A stretch of DNA of 64,000 nt from contig CAYQCW010000004.1 in assembly GCA_964416155.1 (NCBI GenBank), positions 30,658 through 94,657 on the forward strand. The letters are read 5' to 3'. Both the position numbers and the translations under genes were made by a program. Below, one piece after another: positions 11,315 through 25,870 of this stretch; the first letter of the stretch is position 1, and every line of letters begins with the position of its first letter. The notes beneath the pieces are model-generated. The model did not search any database. It saw only the letters and a list, made by a program, of their open reading frames with translations, and was not told where the DNA came from. The stretch comes from an uncultured Nitrososphaerota archaeon. GTDB taxonomy: Archaea > Thermoproteota > EX4484-205 > JAAOZP01.

Positions 11315-11980
11315 TTGGCAAGCCTGATTGACCGGGAGCTGAAGTTCTTCTTAACCTCGCCACTCTTTATGGTCTTGGAGCTTGTTCCAGCAGCATCGGT
11401 CGCCTATGTTATACTGTATTCCGGTTTCTTCAAATCCGTTATTCCTTTTATTACAATAATATGGATAATGATAGTTCTCTTCTCAACCTTTTTCGAGCTC
11501 GAGGTCTGGCGTGGGAATTTTTTAAATAGGGGTTTCAAGTTGAAACTTTATGTTAACACTTCCGAGTACAAACCCTTCTTAGCCCACTCCTTGGCTTCCC
11601 TTATTCTCCTAGAGCTTAAAACACTTATAGCACTTTTAGTAATTCTAGTGCCTTTACAGGCTCCGCCTTCTATTGAGATAGGGTTCTTTGTTTTAGCGAC
11701 GCATGCTTTCTGGCTTTTCGCATTATCCGTCGGATACGTTGTTTCTAAAGAAGTTTTAAGGAGGTCTTCGAGCTTAACTGCATTTTTCATATACATGCTT
11801 ATTTTCAGCGCAGTGACGTTTAGCATGCCTATTCAGCAATCTGATCAAACACTTTCACTTTTCGGTTTAAGACTTGATACATTCACATTAATCTTTCTGT
11901 TCGTTTCACTGCTGCTTTACGTCTTAGCCTTATATGCTTGCTCGGTGGAAGCCAGGAATATTCGTATCGACGATTTTTAG
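11315..11980 (+). CDS. Multi-pass membrane protein, ABC-2-like permease
   Basis: About six hydrophobic segments; 6 nt after the ABC ATPase. Confidence 0.65.
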   Translation: MASLIDRELKFFLTSPLFMVLELVPAASVAYVILYSGFFKSVIPFITIIWIMIVLFSTFFELEVWRGNFLNRGFKLKLYVNTSEYKPFLAHSLASLILLELKTLIALLVILVPLQAPPSIEIGFFVLATHAFWLFALSVGYVVSKEVLRRSSSLTAFFIYMLIFSAVTFSMPIQQSDQTLSLFGLRLDTFTLIFLFVSLLLYVLALYACSVEARNIRIDDF

Positions 11981-11993
11981 CCTGCTTAAGGGG

Positions 11994-12173
11994 AAAGGTT
12001 AATATAGGCCTCCCAGTGGGCACACTGCTTAGGAGGTGCGCTGAGTGTACCATAGTATTCACGCTCCAAGGGGGCGGGACACCGTCCACCAACTGCAGAG
12101 GCCCCGCTGCAAGCCCAGCCTCCGCTAGGGAAACAAGGGTTTTCAACAGGCTGTTTGCAAGAGGTGTTTTAAA
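11994..12173 (+). promoter_or_regulatory. ilvBNCD promoter and long conserved leader
   Basis: AAAGGTTAATATAG promoter, GCTTAGGAGGTG (12027-38), ACGCTCCAAGGGGGCGGGAC (12061-80); mirrored upstream of leuA. Confidence 0.75.
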
Positions 12174-13847
12174 ATGGTTTCAGGGTCAAGACTACTGGTG
12201 GAGAGGCTGAGGGAGAACGGGGTTAAAACCATCTTCGGAGTGCCTGGCGGTGCGGTGCTCCCGTTCCTGGACGAGCTGTATAAGGCGAACGACATAGAGT
12301 TCATTCTGACTAGGCATGAGCAGGGTGCTGCCCACATGGCTGACGGTTATGCTAGGGCAACCGGCAGAATCGGCGTAGTCCTAACCACATCCGGCCCCGG
12401 TGCAACTAATCTTGCAACAGGCATTGCCAACGCCTACTTGGATTCCACACCGGTTTTAAGCATAGCCGGCCAGGTTGCGACGCCGCTCATAGGCTACGAC
12501 GGTTTCCAGGAGGCTAATATTTTCTCCATGATGATAGGGTTGACTAAGATGAACTTTCTACCCAGGGATTTGAACGAGCTTAACTCCGCCCTTGAAAACG
12601 CTTTTAAAATAGCCTTATCCGGAAGACCGGGGCCTGTTCACATAGATGTTCCTAGGGATGTTCAGCTGATGGAGGGTGAGCCAGACGATGATTTCTACGT
12701 TTACTCTTATACTCCTCTCTCTCCTTCAGACGAGGAGATTCTAACAGCCTCAAGGATGCTGGTTGAGGCTGAGAGGCCTGTTATCATCGCCGGGGGAGGA
12801 GTAATAATGTCAGGCGCGCACAGCGAGCTTATTGCTCTCGCCGAGCTTCTAAACGCTCCCGTGGCGACGACGCTGATGGGTAAGGGAAGTATTCCTGAGG
12901 ACCACCCGTTGTCCCTGGGGATGCTTGGGATGCATGGGAGGCTCGGCGCGATCAAGGCTGTTCAGGAGAGCGACCTGGTTCTCGCCGTAGGCATGAGGTT
13001 CAGCGACAGGACTACGGGTAAGCTAAGCGGCTTCGCGCCGGGGGCTAGGAAGATACATGTTGACATAGATAGGTCTGAAATCGGGAAGCTGCTTAAGCCC
13101 GAGCTTGGTATCGCCGGGGACGCTAAACAGGTTTTAAACAGGATTCGCGAAGCTGTTCTCAGGCTTTTCCAGAAGGATAAGGCTGGCACATGGGGTGAAA
13201 GAGTGAAGCAGCTCAGGAAGGAGTCTGAATTTCTTTACGATTACGATGCTGTCCCAGTTGATCCGAGTGCCGCCGTTAGGGTTCTCAGCGACTACGTTAG
13301 GCCTGAAGACTTTGTGACGACTGAGGTTGGCCAGTGTCAGATGTATGCTTCGCTTCACTTCACAGCTAGGCGTCCAAGGCAGTTCATATCCTCCGGCGGC
13401 CTGGGGACAATGGGATTCGGGCTTCCGGCTGCAATCGGGGTTAAGGCGGCCTTCCCGGGGAGCCGTGTTTTCGACATAGCTGGGGACGGCAGCTTCTTCA
13501 TGACTTGCAACCAGCTTCCTGTTTCAGTCGACTATAATCTACCGATCATAGTCATGGTTCTCAACAATTATTTCCTGGGGATGGTGAGGCAGTGGCAGGA
13601 GCTCTTCTACGGCAGAAGGTATATTGCCGTGGACTTGAAGGGTAGGGCTGACATAACTAGGGTTTCAGAGGGTTTCGGCGCCAGAGGGTTTAAGGCGACG
13701 AGGATAAGCGAGCTTAAAGACGCTCTTGAAACCGCTTTAAAACAGGATGAGACGACTGTGCTCGACGTTATTGTCGAGAGGGAGGACAATGTTTTCCCAA
13801 TGGTTCCCCCGGCTTCCCCGCTTGACAGCGTTATCGTAAGGAGGTAG
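12174..13847 (+). CDS. ilvB: Acetolactate synthase large subunit
   Basis: FGVPGG, RHEQGAAHMADGYAR, TSGPGATN, GLGTMGFGLPAAIG, GDGSF...NN TPP motif. Confidence 0.97.
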   Translation: MVSGSRLLVERLRENGVKTIFGVPGGAVLPFLDELYKANDIEFILTRHEQGAAHMADGYARATGRIGVVLTTSGPGATNLATGIANAYLDSTPVLSIAGQVATPLIGYDGFQEANIFSMMIGLTKMNFLPRDLNELNSALENAFKIALSGRPGPVHIDVPRDVQLMEGEPDDDFYVYSYTPLSPSDEEILTASRMLVEAERPVIIAGGGVIMSGAHSELIALAELLNAPVATTLMGKGSIPEDHPLSLGMLGMHGRLGAIKAVQESDLVLAVGMRFSDRTTGKLSGFAPGARKIHVDIDRSEIGKLLKPELGIAGDAKQVLNRIREAVLRLFQKDKAGTWGERVKQLRKESEFLYDYDAVPVDPSAAVRVLSDYVRPEDFVTTEVGQCQMYASLHFTARRPRQFISSGGLGTMGFGLPAAIGVKAAFPGSRVFDIAGDGSFFMTCNQLPVSVDYNLPIIVMVLNNYFLGMVRQWQELFYGRRYIAVDLKGRADITRVSEGFGARGFKATRISELKDALETALKQDETTVLDVIVEREDNVFPMVPPASPLDSVIVRR

Positions 13848-17014: not shown

Positions 17015-18031
17015 ATGTCTACACCATGCTCCGAGGGTTTTTCGGTTAAGCTGGACCGTTTCGCAACCATTCGCCTCAGGGAAGGGGAAACGCTTCTGAA
17101 AACAGGCTTAGACGAGGCTTTAAACTATCTTTTCATATCTCACGCTCACTTCGACCATCTGGTTAAGTCTGACGCTAAGAGAGCAATGGCAGTATGCTCG
17201 GAGGAGACTCTTCTGCTTTCAACGCTCAGAGGGCTTGAAGTAAATCGTGCTGAGCAGAACCGTTTTACCCTTCTCGACTCAGGCCATATCCTTGGGTCTA
17301 AAGCCCTGCTCATAGAAACCGATAAGGGTGGAATACTGTACACTGGGGATGTTAACACTTCGCCGGTTGAAGGCATACCTAGGCAACGCTTCCCCCGGGT
17401 TCACACGCTGATAATAGAGTCTAACTACGGTCGCCCCAGCCTGGTTTTCCCTCCTAGGAGACAGCTGATAGGGGAGATTGTTGACTACGTGAGTGAAACA
17501 GTTAAGAGGGGTAGGCCCATGGTTCTAATGGGGTATCCGCTGGGGAAGTCTCAGCATGTTCAAATGGTTCTGGACACTGTCCTCCAAAGCGTTGTCGAAA
17601 CATACGTTTCACCATCCATAGCGGAGTATAACAACGTTTACAGGCTTTTCTCAGTGGGAATAGGGGGGAAGAAAGTTTTCACGCCTCAGTCCCCGGAGCT
17701 GCCGGATGGCTCTTGGGCTCTCTACTATCCCAATGTCTCAGGCAGGAATGCTTTCATGCAGCTCGTCAAGAGGAAGTATGACGCTGTCTCCATAAGCTTC
17801 TCAGGCAGGTCGCTTTTCAACTGGTATAGTGAGACGCTGGGTGTGGACAAGGCTTTCCCCTTGAGCGACCATGCTGATTTCAACGGCCTGATGGAGGTCG
17901 TGAGGGAAACCTGTCCGGAGAAGGTTTTCACAGTCCACGGTTTCCCGGAGGAGTTTTCAAGGGAGCTTAGGAGGCTCGGCTACGATTCTAAACCATTACG
18001 TCCAAGCATGGAGGCCAGCTTCAGGCTTTAG
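17015..18031 (+). CDS. MBL-fold (beta-CASP-like) hydrolase/nuclease
   Basis: HAHFDH, GHILGS, YTGD, ESNYG, SDHAD motifs. Confidence 0.85.
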   Translation: MSTPCSEGFSVKLDRFATIRLREGETLLKTGLDEALNYLFISHAHFDHLVKSDAKRAMAVCSEETLLLSTLRGLEVNRAEQNRFTLLDSGHILGSKALLIETDKGGILYTGDVNTSPVEGIPRQRFPRVHTLIIESNYGRPSLVFPPRRQLIGEIVDYVSETVKRGRPMVLMGYPLGKSQHVQMVLDTVLQSVVETYVSPSIAEYNNVYRLFSVGIGGKKVFTPQSPELPDGSWALYYPNVSGRNAFMQLVKRKYDAVSISFSGRSLFNWYSETLGVDKAFPLSDHADFNGLMEVVRETCPEKVFTVHGFPEEFSRELRRLGYDSKPLRPSMEASFRL

Positions 18032-19280: not shown

Positions 19281-20801
19281 TTGCCCATGGAGCAGGATGC
19301 TGGTGGAGGCATATACCGGAGCAGGCTGGGGCCGGTTTCCTCAGAGGCCACGAGATACGTGTCCAGCATCAGGGAAGATCTCTGGATATTCAACGAGGAT
19401 ATTGAGTGCACCGTTGCACATGACCTGATGCTTATGAAGCAGGGCTATATTACTGAGGAGCAGCTTAAACGGATTCTCGAGGCTCTTAAAAGGCTGTGGG
19501 ACGAGGGCTTGAGCCGGATCGACCTTGAAAAGTATGAGGATGTTCATGAGCTGATAGAGTCTTACGTGGTTAAGCAGGCTGGTCTAGAGGTTGGAGGTCT
19601 TGTTCACACGGCGCGCTCCAGGAACGACCAGGTTGTAACGGCGGTGAGGCTTAAAACGAGAAGAGAGGTTTTAAGCATCATGGGGGAACTGCTTGAGCTT
19701 GAGGAGACTCTTCTAAAGAAGGCTGGGGAGACTGTTGACCTAGTGTTTCCGTTCTACACTCATCTGCAGCAGGCTCAGGCCGCTCCCCTTTCACACTACT
19801 TCCTAGGGTATTTCGACATTTTTCTGAGAGACTTCAACCGTCTATCAGAATCGTTTAAAAGGGTTAACCAGAACCCCCTTGGAAGCGTTGCTATAGTCGG
19901 CTCCTCGCTTAAAATAGATAGAGGCCTCACTACGAGGCTCCTAGGGTTCGACGGGATGTTGGAGAACTCGTTCGACGCTGTTTCCTCAAGGGACTTCGCG
20001 CTGGAGGTTATTTCAAACCTTAACATCCTCATGCTTAACCTGAGCAGGATTATGGAGGACCTCATAATCTGGCTTACCTCCGAGTACGGTTTCTTCACGC
20101 TTCCAGATGAGCTGGCTTTCCCGTCTAGCGCGATGCCTAACAAGAAGAACCCCTGCATACTTGAGCTGACCCGTGCGAGAACGGGACGGGTTTTCTCAAG
20201 CCTAGCCCAGCTTTCAATGGTTTGCAAGGCGGTGCCCAGCGGCTACGTTAGGGATCTTCAGGAGACTAAACCCCCGTTGATCGAGGCGATTGAAACAACC
20301 AGGGAGGCGGTTAGAATCGTCAGGATTGTTCTAGAGAACCTGAAGGAAAACCGTGAGAGAATAAGGTCTTTAACTGAGCCGAACATTATTGCCCTGGATG
20401 TTGCTGAAAGAATAGTTGAGGAGGCTAAGGTTCCCTTCAGGCTTGCCCACAGGCTGGTGGGGGGGATGGTGAAGCTCAGCGTTAAGACGGGTAGGAGGAT
20501 GACTAGTCTCAACGAGGATGATCTCAGAATGGTTTCCCTGAGTGTGCTGGGCAGGGACATTAGTAGTCTACTGGCGAACATTCTGAAAGAGGCTGACACC
20601 AGTGTTCTCGTTTCTAAGCGAGTATCCTTGGGCGCCGGCTCCCCGGAGGCTGATAAAATGATGCTTGCAGCCAGGCGGAACGTTTTACAGGAATGTTTTT
20701 CCAGGCTTAGCCTGATGATTCGGAAGGACAGGGAGGCTAGGATGCTTCTCTCGGATTCTGTAAGCAGGCTTGTGGAGGGCTTCTCCTTATCCAAAGATTG
20801 A
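19281..20801 (+). CDS. argH: Argininosuccinate lyase
   Basis: HTARSRNDQV, YTHLQQAQ, SSAMPNKKNP. Confidence 0.93.
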   Translation: MPMEQDAGGGIYRSRLGPVSSEATRYVSSIREDLWIFNEDIECTVAHDLMLMKQGYITEEQLKRILEALKRLWDEGLSRIDLEKYEDVHELIESYVVKQAGLEVGGLVHTARSRNDQVVTAVRLKTRREVLSIMGELLELEETLLKKAGETVDLVFPFYTHLQQAQAAPLSHYFLGYFDIFLRDFNRLSESFKRVNQNPLGSVAIVGSSLKIDRGLTTRLLGFDGMLENSFDAVSSRDFALEVISNLNILMLNLSRIMEDLIIWLTSEYGFFTLPDELAFPSSAMPNKKNPCILELTRARTGRVFSSLAQLSMVCKAVPSGYVRDLQETKPPLIEAIETTREAVRIVRIVLENLKENRERIRSLTEPNIIALDVAERIVEEAKVPFRLAHRLVGGMVKLSVKTGRRMTSLNEDDLRMVSLSVLGRDISSLLANILKEADTSVLVSKRVSLGAGSPEADKMMLAARRNVLQECFSRLSLMIRKDREARMLLSDSVSRLVEGFSLSKD

Positions 20802-20933: not shown

Positions 20934-21500
20934 TTGCTAATTAGAAAGGACAAGATAATAGGCCTACAGGTTTACGATAAGAGAGGCCGGTACGTCGGCA
21001 AAGTTAAGGACATAGGGTTTGTCCTAGGCGAGAACCTTGTTGGAATAGTCGTTGTTGGTAGAGACAATAGGGAGATGGAGTTCATCTGGAGCGAGGTTGA
21101 TGCCGCTGAAGACATAGTGATACTTAAGAAGGAGGTGACTGTTCCCGCTGCACCCCCTGCGCCGGCGAAGCCGGCTGTCGAGACGCGTGAGGAGCCGAAG
21201 GCCCAGGTGAGGGAACAGGTTTCAGCGAAGCCTCCCACATACTTGCCGAGGGAGCCGGAGGTTCAGGTTGCTTCAAGCAGTGATGCAGCCAGGGTTCCTG
21301 AGGCTCAGTCTTCTTTCAAGGAGCCTGCTGAATTCGAGGAGGCAGAACTGGAGCATGGTGAAACCGTGGCCGCTGCACCGCGGCCTGCTCCCGAGGAGAC
21401 GGCTGGCGGTGCAGGAACCAAGTCTTGTCCGAAGTGCGGAGCCATAAACAATGCGCGCTACAAATTCTGCTTCAGATGCGGAACCAGGCTGCCCGCTTAG
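20934..21500 (+). CDS. PRC-barrel protein with Pro/Ala/Glu linker and C-terminal zinc ribbon
   Basis: IIGLQVYDKRGRYVGKVKDI...EDIVIL PRC pattern; CPKCG...KFCFRCG. Confidence 0.85.
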   Translation: MLIRKDKIIGLQVYDKRGRYVGKVKDIGFVLGENLVGIVVVGRDNREMEFIWSEVDAAEDIVILKKEVTVPAAPPAPAKPAVETREEPKAQVREQVSAKPPTYLPREPEVQVASSSDAARVPEAQSSFKEPAEFEEAELEHGETVAAAPRPAPEETAGGAGTKSCPKCGAINNARYKFCFRCGTRLPA

Positions 21501-22339
21501 CTTAACGGTTCTTTAAGAACTATTCCGCGGCCCCTCTCTATTTCAAACCTGTAGATTATTGGGTTCACAGCGGTCCAGCGCATCTTCCTTATGAACATCG
21601 TTCTTATGATGGAGTTCCCAACCCTAGATAGGGAGAGTATTATGACGCCGCTCGCCAGAAACTCTTCAACACCATACCTGCTCATCATGTTCTCCCCGGT
21701 GGGGACCTCTGATGTTATCACGGTGGTTACGCCAAGCTTCTCCTCAATCGAGAATATGAGGCTCCTAATGTATTCTCTAACCCATGCAACCTCGTTCGAG
21801 TAGGTGGTGACCAACGGGGCTATCGGATCTATGACGAGCCTCTTGGCCCCTATTTCCCTCCTCCTCTTGTCAAGCTCCTCTATTATGTTGTTGACTATAG
21901 TGTCCATTTCCCTTCCCCACATCTTGGAGGTGAAGTATCTTCTAACCGGGAGGATCGCGAGCTTCCTGGTCTCTATAAGGGGCTGAAGATCCCAGCCGAA
22001 GTTTCTCACGTCTCTCACAAGCATCTCCGGCCTCTCGTCTATCGTAACGTATATCCCGGGCTCGTTGTTCTTAGCCCCGTATAAAAGGTACTGTAGGCTG
22101 AAAATCGTCTTCCCGGTTCCAGCCTCTCCGGCGAGAAGGCATGTTTTGCCGGATTCGAACCCGCCCTCCAGGATCTCGTCTATCGCGGAGTTGCCTGTTG
22201 AAACCCTTCTAACATAGGAGACTCCTTTCCGCGGGGTTCCACAGGCTGGGCAGAACTTGTATTCGGGGCTGAGTGGACGCCCACATTCACAGTAGTAAGC
22301 GCCTACAGCCTCTCTTTTAACCGCCTCTCTCCGCTGCAA
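21497..22339 (-). CDS. Single-domain KaiC/RAD55-like ATPase with N-terminal zinc ribbon
   Basis: STGNSAIDEILEGG, GEAGTGKT, LVIDP, RKMRWT; CECG...KFCPACG. Confidence 0.9.
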   Translation of the reverse strand: MQRREAVKREAVGAYYCECGRPLSPEYKFCPACGTPRKGVSYVRRVSTGNSAIDEILEGGFESGKTCLLAGEAGTGKTIFSLQYLLYGAKNNEPGIYVTIDERPEMLVRDVRNFGWDLQPLIETRKLAILPVRRYFTSKMWGREMDTIVNNIIEELDKRRREIGAKRLVIDPIAPLVTTYSNEVAWVREYIRSLIFSIEEKLGVTTVITSEVPTGENMMSRYGVEEFLASGVIILSLSRVGNSIIRTMFIRKMRWTAVNPIIYRFEIERGRGIVLKEPLS

Positions 22340-25694: not shown

Positions 25695-25864
25695 TACGAC
25701 CCCCTCCTAAAACAGGTTTAAAACAATATCGTTTTTCAACAGTCTCTAATAGAGGTGTCACTGTTTCTGGAACGCAGGTGGTCTCGCCCCCTTTGGGCGT
25801 TACGAGTCATGAGTATGCTACACACCTCCTTAGCGGAGACTGCTTGACTACTATATTAACTTTT
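25695..25864 (-). promoter_or_regulatory. leuACD promoter and long conserved leader
   Basis: On the minus strand: AAAAGTTAATATAG, GCTAAGGAGGTG (25834-25823), ACGCCCAAAGGGGGCGAGAC (25800-25781). Confidence 0.75.
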
Positions 25865-25870
25865 CTACGG

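Follow-up and report, generated by a model that had tools for sequence, protein, structure and literature searches.

We found that the ilvBNCD and leuACD operons on a 64-kb stretch of contig CAYQCW010000004.1 (hereafter the window), from an uncultured Nitrososphaerota archaeon, are each preceded by a leader carrying a short upstream open reading frame (uORF) whose only systematic coding difference between the two operons is a Val codon before ilvB and a Leu codon before leuA. We read these leaders as ribosome-sensed attenuators of the leader-peptide type, a tentative assignment from sequence to which we give a probability of about 0.45. Comparative evidence shows the uORF, its conservation, its restriction to the two operons and the codon difference. 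An earlier annotation of the window from its letters alone (the sequence-only reading) had described two ungapped blocks shared by both leaders behind a common promoter core, and had offered a regulatory RNA, a uORF switch or a protein-binding site as explanations. The blocks, the 22-nt gap between them in both copies and the promoter core all lie where it had placed them (Table 1), and we confirmed that the window holds no further copy: a degenerate block-2 pattern with up to three mismatches matched these two sites only in 64 kb, against 0.01 expected from shuffles. We chose the uORF among the three options because block 1 is the uORF Shine-Dalgarno (SD) sequence and block 2 lies in the uORF frame, whereas the structured, riboswitch-like RNA did not survive, given the fold z-scores and the lack of a common pairing partner for block 2.

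The SD sequence, GGAGGTG, is invariant in all 33 distinct leaders that we collected, and in all 33 a GTG or ATG start follows 4–12 nt downstream (6 nt in most) and opens a frame of 20–27 codons. The start is retained through replacement: it has changed from GTG to ATG in leader L117, and the six leu leaders without the ancestral GTG all have an in-frame ATG two codons downstream, an ATG that the seven GTG-keeping leaders lack. Indels of 1 nt (L117) and 2 nt (L004) occur only in the SD-start spacer, those within the uORF measure 3 nt (L115) and 6 nt (the leu leader of L005), and beyond the stop they take many lengths. The stop falls in one alignment column in 13/13 aligned leu leaders and 11/15 aligned ilv leaders, with TGA, TAG and TAA interchanging. 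Over the uORF span of 28 aligned leaders, the uORF frame is interrupted by a stop in 0/28, the +1 frame in 11/28 and the +2 frame in 26/28. Column shuffles left all sequences stop-free in 0.6% of cases for the leu GTG-start set, 25% for the leu ATG-start set and 27% for the 27-codon ilv set. The +1 frame relative to the ilv uORF is also stop-free over this span in 14/15 ilv leaders, and in the window it forms a 90-aa ORF that begins inside the upstream gene and crosses the promoter; the open +1 frame is probably a composition effect of G+C-rich sequence with few T-A-purine triplets. We rejected protein-like purifying selection along the whole uORF, as 3-periodicity is absent outside the block-2 core. 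Outside this core, the alignments indicate that selection keeps the existence of the ORF and not its peptide; an ORF under selection with a free peptide is a known pattern of bacterial leader peptides. As judged from the alignments, what is under selection in the leader ORF is only its start, frame and stop, the core AAGGGGGCGRGA and the codon two positions past the core.

Read in the uORF frame, block 2 always encodes (A/T)-x-R-G-R-D in the clade leaders. The codons AGG GGG CG(A/G) show nearly no synonymous change, even with the sister-lineage leader L118 included. The replacements within the core are Asp to Tyr in L118 and Ala to Thr in L116, and the differences between the hot-spring clade and L118 fall at codon positions 1 and 2, not at position 3. 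Several of the codons are rare in 15 window genes, including CGA (3 of 399 Arg codons, the rarest), CGG (18 of 399), CCA (13% of Pro codons) and CAA (9% of Gln codons). Because synonymous sites and rare codons are kept, selection appears to act on sequence or codon identity and not on the peptide alone. AGGGGG can pair with the CCUCC at the 3′ end of 16S rRNA, with one G-U pair, and the Val/Leu codon lies 7 nt past AGGGGGCG; the SD-to-start spacing in this genome is 6–7 nt.

Two codons past the core, in both copies, stands the putative sensor codon, which is GTC in 18/18 distinct ilv leaders and in L118, and CTG at the homologous position in 14/14 distinct leu leaders. Its neighbors vary: in ilv leaders, ACC or CCC precedes and CAC, CGC or TGC follows, and in leu leaders, TAC, CAC or AAC precedes and CGT, CAT, TCT or CTT follows. 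The ilv leaders also keep CAA CTG (Gln16-Leu17), placing a Leu codon three codons past GTC. Val and Leu codons before an acetolactate-synthase operon and a Leu codon before an isopropylmalate operon follow the logic of E. coli ivbL and leuL. By this analogy, the operon-specific codon is the strongest hint that a ribosome may be reading amino-acid supply, and together with the genomic context it points to a putative responsiveness to Leu, Ile and Val.

To collect relatives, we scanned for IlvD proteins with one genome per species, which returned five close relatives (81–96% identity) followed by matches at 55% or less. The five are hot-spring metagenome-assembled genomes labelled Thermoproteota, Nitrososphaerota or Crenarchaeota. 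The element precedes leuA in 5/5 of them and ilvB in 4/4 of those whose contig reaches that region, and it was found in 0/75 distant loci. All close relatives have it in front of the orthologous operons, which bears out the proposal of a cis element common to both branched-chain operons. A context-blind scan of metagenome DNA for the pattern returned 28 loci, 23 of them directly upstream of ilvB (MVSG...) or leuA (MVWRGY...). The other five (L083, L085/L107, L094 and L102) match by chance within GC-rich bacterial coding sequence and give a rough false-positive rate for a ~39-bit DNA pattern in the metagenome collection.

The LeuA proteins of the clade span 80–95% identity, followed by a gap down to 61%, and its IlvB proteins 78–98%, followed by a gap down to 57%. 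Source records give clade members the name Candidatus Brockarchaeota, a phylum whose description drew on Chinese hot springs and Guaymas Basin sediments (PMC8065059). Retrieved through their proteins, and so without motif bias, the most divergent members all carry the element (L109–L112 before leuA, via LeuA; L115–L117 before ilvB, via IlvB), and L001–L005 were likewise found through the IlvD protein, unbiased toward the motif. Each of the 33 distinct leaders lies directly upstream of ilvB or leuA, and of no other gene. A profile search (nhmmer) of 1.66 Mb of fetched DNA returned only the known leaders (E ≤ 1e-13) and a weak match in the sister lineage, and regular expressions for SD plus GTGTAC and for RGRD found no further copy in 306 kb of related DNA. 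Neither the pattern scan, the regular expressions nor the profile search placed the motif before unrelated genes, an occurrence that the sequence-only reading had named as a danger to its proposal. The element was also not found upstream of ilvB in 17 distant loci, nor in Bathyarchaeia and other outgroups.

L118 comes from an archaeon of the Guaymas type that shares the ilvBNCD order and has an IlvB 57% identical. Before its ilvB, TTAATATA is followed 26 nt later by an ATG opening MVMSMVRCTRGRYPVYQILCVL (L118 1307–1375). The core nucleotides recur there, AAGGGGGCGA-A-CCCGTC--CCAA, and stand in the same frame; Val, Ile and Leu account for 5 of the last 8 codons of the uORF, and a U6 tract lies upstream of the ilvB SD. 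This geometry matches a leaderless uORF, with an ambiguous frame. A second open frame in L118 (GTG TAC AAG GGG..., 38 codons, 1327–1443) passes through the core in another frame and extends over the start of ilvB. At the leuA loci of the sister lineage (L113 and L114), synteny matches that of the window, and the intergenic sequence spans only ~60 nt and has no uORF. Because the sister lineage has the leader before ilvB only, we take the leu copy to be a duplicate: from these comparisons, the ilv leader is probably ancestral, and promoter and leader were probably duplicated before leuACD in the hot-spring clade, with GTC changing to CTG. Duplication of the promoter along with the leader would explain why GTTAATATAG stands in both.

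Both leaders start directly downstream of the upstream gene with a purine-rich B recognition element (BRE) and a TATA box, a promoter kept in 33/33 leaders. Leaderless-type genes of the window start 25–27 nt past a TATA-like 8-mer, and because of this TATA-to-start geometry we place both blocks inside the transcript. The transcription start site (TSS) is predicted at or within ~3 nt of the first G of GGAGGTG (~12029–12034 for ilv, ~25832–25827 for leu), which would make the uORF SD the very 5′ end of the mRNA in both operons. Directly past the TATA box, ilv promoters carry an inverted repeat of the form GCCC..N6–9..GGGC that most leu promoters lack. It occupies the same position in L003, L081, L082, L093, L098, L104 and L117; its sequence differs by lineage, and about half of the ilv leaders retain complementarity (z −2.5 to −3.3). 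The repeat may serve a repressor as operator or, should the TSS lie further upstream than predicted, form a 5′ hairpin.

Table 1. Positions in the window of the leader features, the first genes of both operons and neighboring genes
Feature	Position	Strand	Detail
ilv promoter	11990–12007	+	purine-rich BRE GGGGAAAGG, then TATA box TTAATATA (11999–12006); GTTAATATAG at 11998–12007, exact in the two leaders only
GC-rich inverted repeat, ilv	12008–12023	+	GCC..CCCAGTGGGC, between TATA box and predicted TSS
ilv block 1	12027–12038	+	GCTTAGGAGGTG
ilv uORF SD	12032–12038	+	core of block 1
ilv uORF	12045–12128	+	GTG start, 27 codons and TAG; peptide MYHSIHAPRGRDTVHQLQRPRCKPSLR; open frame, stop position kept
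ilv block 2	12061–12080	+	ACGCTCCAAGGGGGCGGGAC
ilv core codons	12063–12080	+	A7 P8 R9 G10 R11 D12 = GCT CCA AGG GGG CGG GAC; contains SD-like AGGGGG
Putative sensor codon, ilv	12084–12086	+	GTC (Val14)
CAA CTG, ilv	12090–12095	+	Gln16-Leu17
Anti-SD-like CCTCC, ilv	12119–12123	+	near uORF 3′ end; complementary to uORF SD and ilvB SD
ilv spacer	12140–12166	+	TTTT 12140–12143, TTT 12154–12156, ilvB SD GAGGTG 12161–12166
ilvB	12174–13847	+	ATG 12174
+1-frame ORF	11938–12210	+	90 aa
leu promoter	25851–25868	−	BRE GTAGAAAAG, then TATA box TTAATATA (25859–25852); GTTAATATAG match at 25860–25851
leu block 1	25834–25823	−	GCTAAGGAGGTG
leu uORF SD	25823–25829	−	GGAGGTG
leu uORF	25736–25810	−	ATG 25810–25808, 24 codons and TGA (25738–25736); peptide MTRNAQRGRDHLRSRNSDTSIRDC; open frame, stop column kept
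leu block 2	25800–25781	−	ACGCCCAAAGGGGGCGAGAC
leu core codons	within 25800–25781	−	A5 Q6 R7 G8 R9 D10 = GCC CAA AGG GGG CGA GAC; block 2
Putative sensor codon, leu	25775–25777	−	CTG (Leu12), homologous to Val14
Anti-SD-like CACCTCT, leu	25751–25757	−	inside uORF; RNAalifold pair with uORF SD
leu spacer	25695–25735	−	U4 runs 25723–25720 and 25712–25709; leuA SD GGAGG 25707–25703
leuA	25694–24159	−	ATG 25694
β-CASP-like gene	17015–18031	+	
argH	19281–20801	+	argininosuccinate lyase
KaiC/RadA-like ATPase gene	21497–22339	−	

Under the attenuator reading, a strong BRE/TATA promoter would yield an mRNA starting at or a few nucleotides before the SD, from which the leader ORF of 20–27 codons would be translated. 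When Val-tRNA or Leu-tRNA is scarce, the leader ribosome would dwell at GUC or CUG. The internal SD-like AGGGGG could tether it exactly when its A or P site holds the sensor codon, the rare Arg codon could add delay to the elongating ribosome, and slow decoding combined with SD-like anchoring at the core may sharpen the sensitivity of the dwell. The position of this 5′-proximal ribosome would then set the amount of full-length, translatable operon mRNA. Candidate outputs include a ribosome that escorts or lags behind RNA polymerase over the 32–54-nt spacer, changing the read-through of U-tract or FttA-dependent termination; shielding of the 5′ end from 5′-to-3′ decay, as with erm leaders; and re-pairing of the CCUCC element. 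We infer that the ribosome stalls, which way regulation runs and what the output step is. A generic read-out is probable, because only the first ~70 nt of the leader are conserved.

Several observations weigh against this attenuator reading. Cognate codons are few, with a single conserved Leu codon in the leu leaders and one Val and one Leu in the ilv leaders, and no tandem run; Val, Ile and Leu are not enriched, at ~15% of the uORF codons in the window versus ~26% in its genes. The Val/Leu split happened once and was conserved thereafter. Even at 57% IlvB identity, the core, GTC and CAA are kept at synonymous sites, a codon conservation that could reflect constraint on RNA or DNA rather than decoding, and outside the core the three codon positions vary equally in the uORF alignments, with no 3-periodic substitution. 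The organisms are uncultured. On the output side, there is no conserved module. The ilv leader region (11800–12400) holds no bacterial-type terminator or antiterminator hairpin; runs of U4–U6 precede the main SD in most leaders and are absent from the ilv leaders of L003, L090, L093, L104 and L116; and L109 (GCATTTCT) has lost the anti-SD element, which L117 and L096 have in degraded form. In partition-function models, a 30-nt ribosome mask placed at three positions and then at every codon, at 37, 60 and 65°C, gave no conserved change in main-SD accessibility. Single-sequence folds are no better than shuffles (z-scores +0.62 and −0.19). CCUCC can pair with either SD, which could serve a translational attenuator of the ermC or mycobacterial Cys type; the models show no conserved opening of the main SD, and the CCUCC is missing from L109 and L117.

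On these data, a universal U-tract attenuator was rejected for the leaders that lack U-tracts, and an SD-unmasking switch found no support in the ribosome-mask models, which gave no conserved effect at any of the three temperatures. In both families, RNAalifold recovered a long-range stem between the uORF SD and CCUCC or CACCUCU. In favor of a role at the RNA level, CCUCC is kept in L003-type ilv leaders though a premature stop leaves it outside the ORF. Covariation, which the sequence-only reading had looked to relatives to supply, amounts to one compensatory pair in total (L096), and the short hairpins differ between families. Two local pairings that it had described form in the window and do not extend to relatives: the CACC opposite GGTG becomes CCCC, TACC or AACC, and the CGCYC/GGGCG hairpin shows C/U changes on one side only, with L116 (ACTCC) breaking it and L118 lacking it. 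The G-run of block 2 finds its partner in a downstream C-run in ilv (in three registers) and in an upstream GCCC in leu, with no partner in common. Rfam 15 returned no leader match at the gathering threshold over the whole window, where it detected only four tRNAs, and only noise for both leaders at E ≤ 10. A stable structured RNA was rejected, as the minimum free energy is at shuffle level and the RNAalifold consensus is limited to the invariant SD/anti-SD stem. Nearby tRNAs were considered as partners and rejected; the four in the window are Gly, Gly, Glu and Arg and are not relevant.

Four other explanations have to be weighed against ribosome sensing of a cognate codon. A riboswitch or T-box-like RNA that binds a metabolite or an uncharged tRNA, with GUC/CUG as specifier, would account for an operon-specific triplet in a conserved frame, which is T-box specifier logic too, but we consider it very improbable: Rfam has no match even at E ≤ 10, the T-box model included, the fold z-scores are at shuffle level, the alignments support only the SD/anti-SD stem and family-specific short hairpins with a single compensatory pair, and L109 and L117 have lost the stem partner. 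The missing common partner of block 2 agrees with a regulator-binding site on DNA or nascent RNA, in which AAGGGGGCGRGA, perhaps together with the GC-rich promoter repeat, is bound by a branched-chain-responsive trans regulator and the uORF is incidental or secondary. The conserved synonymous positions and the placement of the L118 differences at codon positions 1 and 2 agree with such a site, and the ilv inverted repeat, between TATA box and TSS, occupies the usual place of an archaeal repressor. The invariant SD, the start replacement, the frame-keeping indels and the position of the stop would go unexplained, however; the 5′ half of the GCCC..GGGC palindrome is unconserved in L116 and L118, which rules out a dimeric palindromic operator at block 2; and NCBIfam annotation of the window linked no regulator gene to the locus. 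We regard a binding site as unlikely.

The uORF would be central if the nascent (A/T)xRGRD were an arrest peptide that stalls the ribosome once free Val or Leu (or some other metabolite) is abundant, so that uncoupling from RNA polymerase switches the operon off. A conserved peptide core in mid-uORF with a freely drifting remainder is what this would look like, and in a crude three-state model, placing the ribosome at the stop tended to leave the main SD more open than placing it at the Val/Leu codon, which fits a stall that means off. The codon-by-codon model, by contrast, gave no conserved effect of ribosome position. The core is kept as nucleotides, synonymous sites and rare codons included, rather than by the conservation at the amino-acid level with synonymous variation that selection on a peptide alone would produce; it also tolerates the L118 and L116 replacements (Asp to Tyr and Ala to Thr). 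The distance from core to stop varies (20–27 codons), and a codon past the core that tracks the end product of the operon would be left without explanation. These points make an arrest peptide improbable. A constitutive leader, translated without any sensing of amino acids, could instead load or escort ribosomes on an mRNA with a long leader or guard the 5′ end, with the likeness of the two copies due to duplication. The sister lineage, with a leader before ilvB only, agrees with a duplicated leu copy, and neither a conserved output structure nor an enrichment of Val, Ile and Leu codons was found. We nevertheless give this little credence: the variable parts have diverged nearly to saturation while core and SD are invariant in both copies and all lineages, the duplicate was placed and kept at the other branched-chain operon only, and only Val versus Leu systematically distinguishes the coding of the two copies.

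Attenuation by leader peptides is a textbook mechanism of bacteria, and archaea couple transcription and translation. If the leaders are attenuators, they share with the bacterial branched-chain systems (E. coli ivbL-ilvBN, leuL-leuABCD and ilvL; Corynebacterium ilvBNC, PMC11857589) a short ORF, predicted to be translated, in the 5′ leader of the cognate operon. As in ivbL and leuL, Val and Leu codons stand before the acetolactate-synthase operon and Leu before the leucine operon, and as in bacterial leader peptides generally, the ORF matters and most of the peptide sequence does not. Unlike the bacterial attenuators, with their tandem runs, the archaeal leaders have one cognate codon, and they have no terminator/antiterminator hairpins; failing these two features of the bacterial family, the element is a variant and not a member. 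Its invariant R-G-R core, SD-like G-run and rare codons have no bacterial counterpart. The ermC and ermA leaders combine translational attenuation with stall-induced mRNA stabilization, triggered by an antibiotic together with a specific nascent peptide. They resemble the archaeal leaders in their 5′-proximal ORF with SD/anti-SD-like pairing, although the archaeal anti-SD element is not universal. TnaC senses Trp, the fungal arginine attenuator peptide Arg and SpeFL ornithine, each conserved at the amino-acid level. A short peptide core in a uORF before pathway genes is common to these and to the archaeal leaders, whose core by contrast is conserved at the nucleotide level.

The leaderless short ORFs of the mycobacterial Cys ribulon (bioRxiv 10.1101/834739) also place a sensory ORF right at the 5′ end of a polycistronic mRNA, as the archaeal leaders are predicted to do (in L118 possibly leaderless as well), with a copy for several operons of one pathway and an output without a terminator hairpin. 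There, a poly-Cys tract stalls the ribosome, which blocks a duplex that sequesters the downstream ribosome-binding site (bioRxiv 10.1101/834739); the archaeal leaders lack both the tract and, in our models, a conserved sequestering duplex. Ribosome profiling has catalogued archaeal uORFs in Haloferax and Methanosarcina (PMC7261190, PMC11456600). In the open literature we found no archaeal amino-acid-sensing leader peptide for any amino-acid operon, and Rfam holds none. It is possible, if somewhat doubtful, that the leaders are the first archaeal ribosome-sensed amino-acid attenuator, with a single cognate codon at the mRNA 5′ end, 4–7 nt past an SD-like G-run and a rare Arg codon, ribosome dwell time as the sensor, a hairpin-free output by transcription-translation coupling, FttA/U-tract termination or 5′-end protection, and re-targeting from ilv to leu by duplication. 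A conserved sensory uORF would let the archaeal read-out of ribosome position be probed directly, because archaea couple transcription and translation yet terminate differently. Archaeal intrinsic termination needs U-tracts only, and the termination factor is FttA/aCPSF1 (PMC8716108, PMC11616081). The ilv/leu pair, one codon apart, would amount to a natural specificity-swap experiment, and the leaders illustrate that metagenome-assembled genomes of uncultured phyla can yield short conserved uORFs.

NCBIfam annotation places ilvN, ilvC and ilvD after ilvB (plus strand) and leuC and leuD after leuA (minus strand), and thermosome and RadA genes mark the host as archaeal. A metallo-β-lactamase/β-CASP nuclease-like gene, which weakly matches models of ligase-associated exonuclease and aCPSF1, begins 4 nt past ilvD and may be co-transcribed with the ilv operon. 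Between the two operons lies argH, which is without a comparable leader or uORF motif. The KaiC/RadA-like ATPase gene is found 3′ of leuD in every relative (L109, L111 and L113), including the 61%-identity sister lineage, and an Rpr2 gene lies upstream of leuA, joined in the hot-spring clade by a MarC/NAAT transporter gene. Because these neighbors are kept across relatives, the synteny of the leu operon is deeply conserved.

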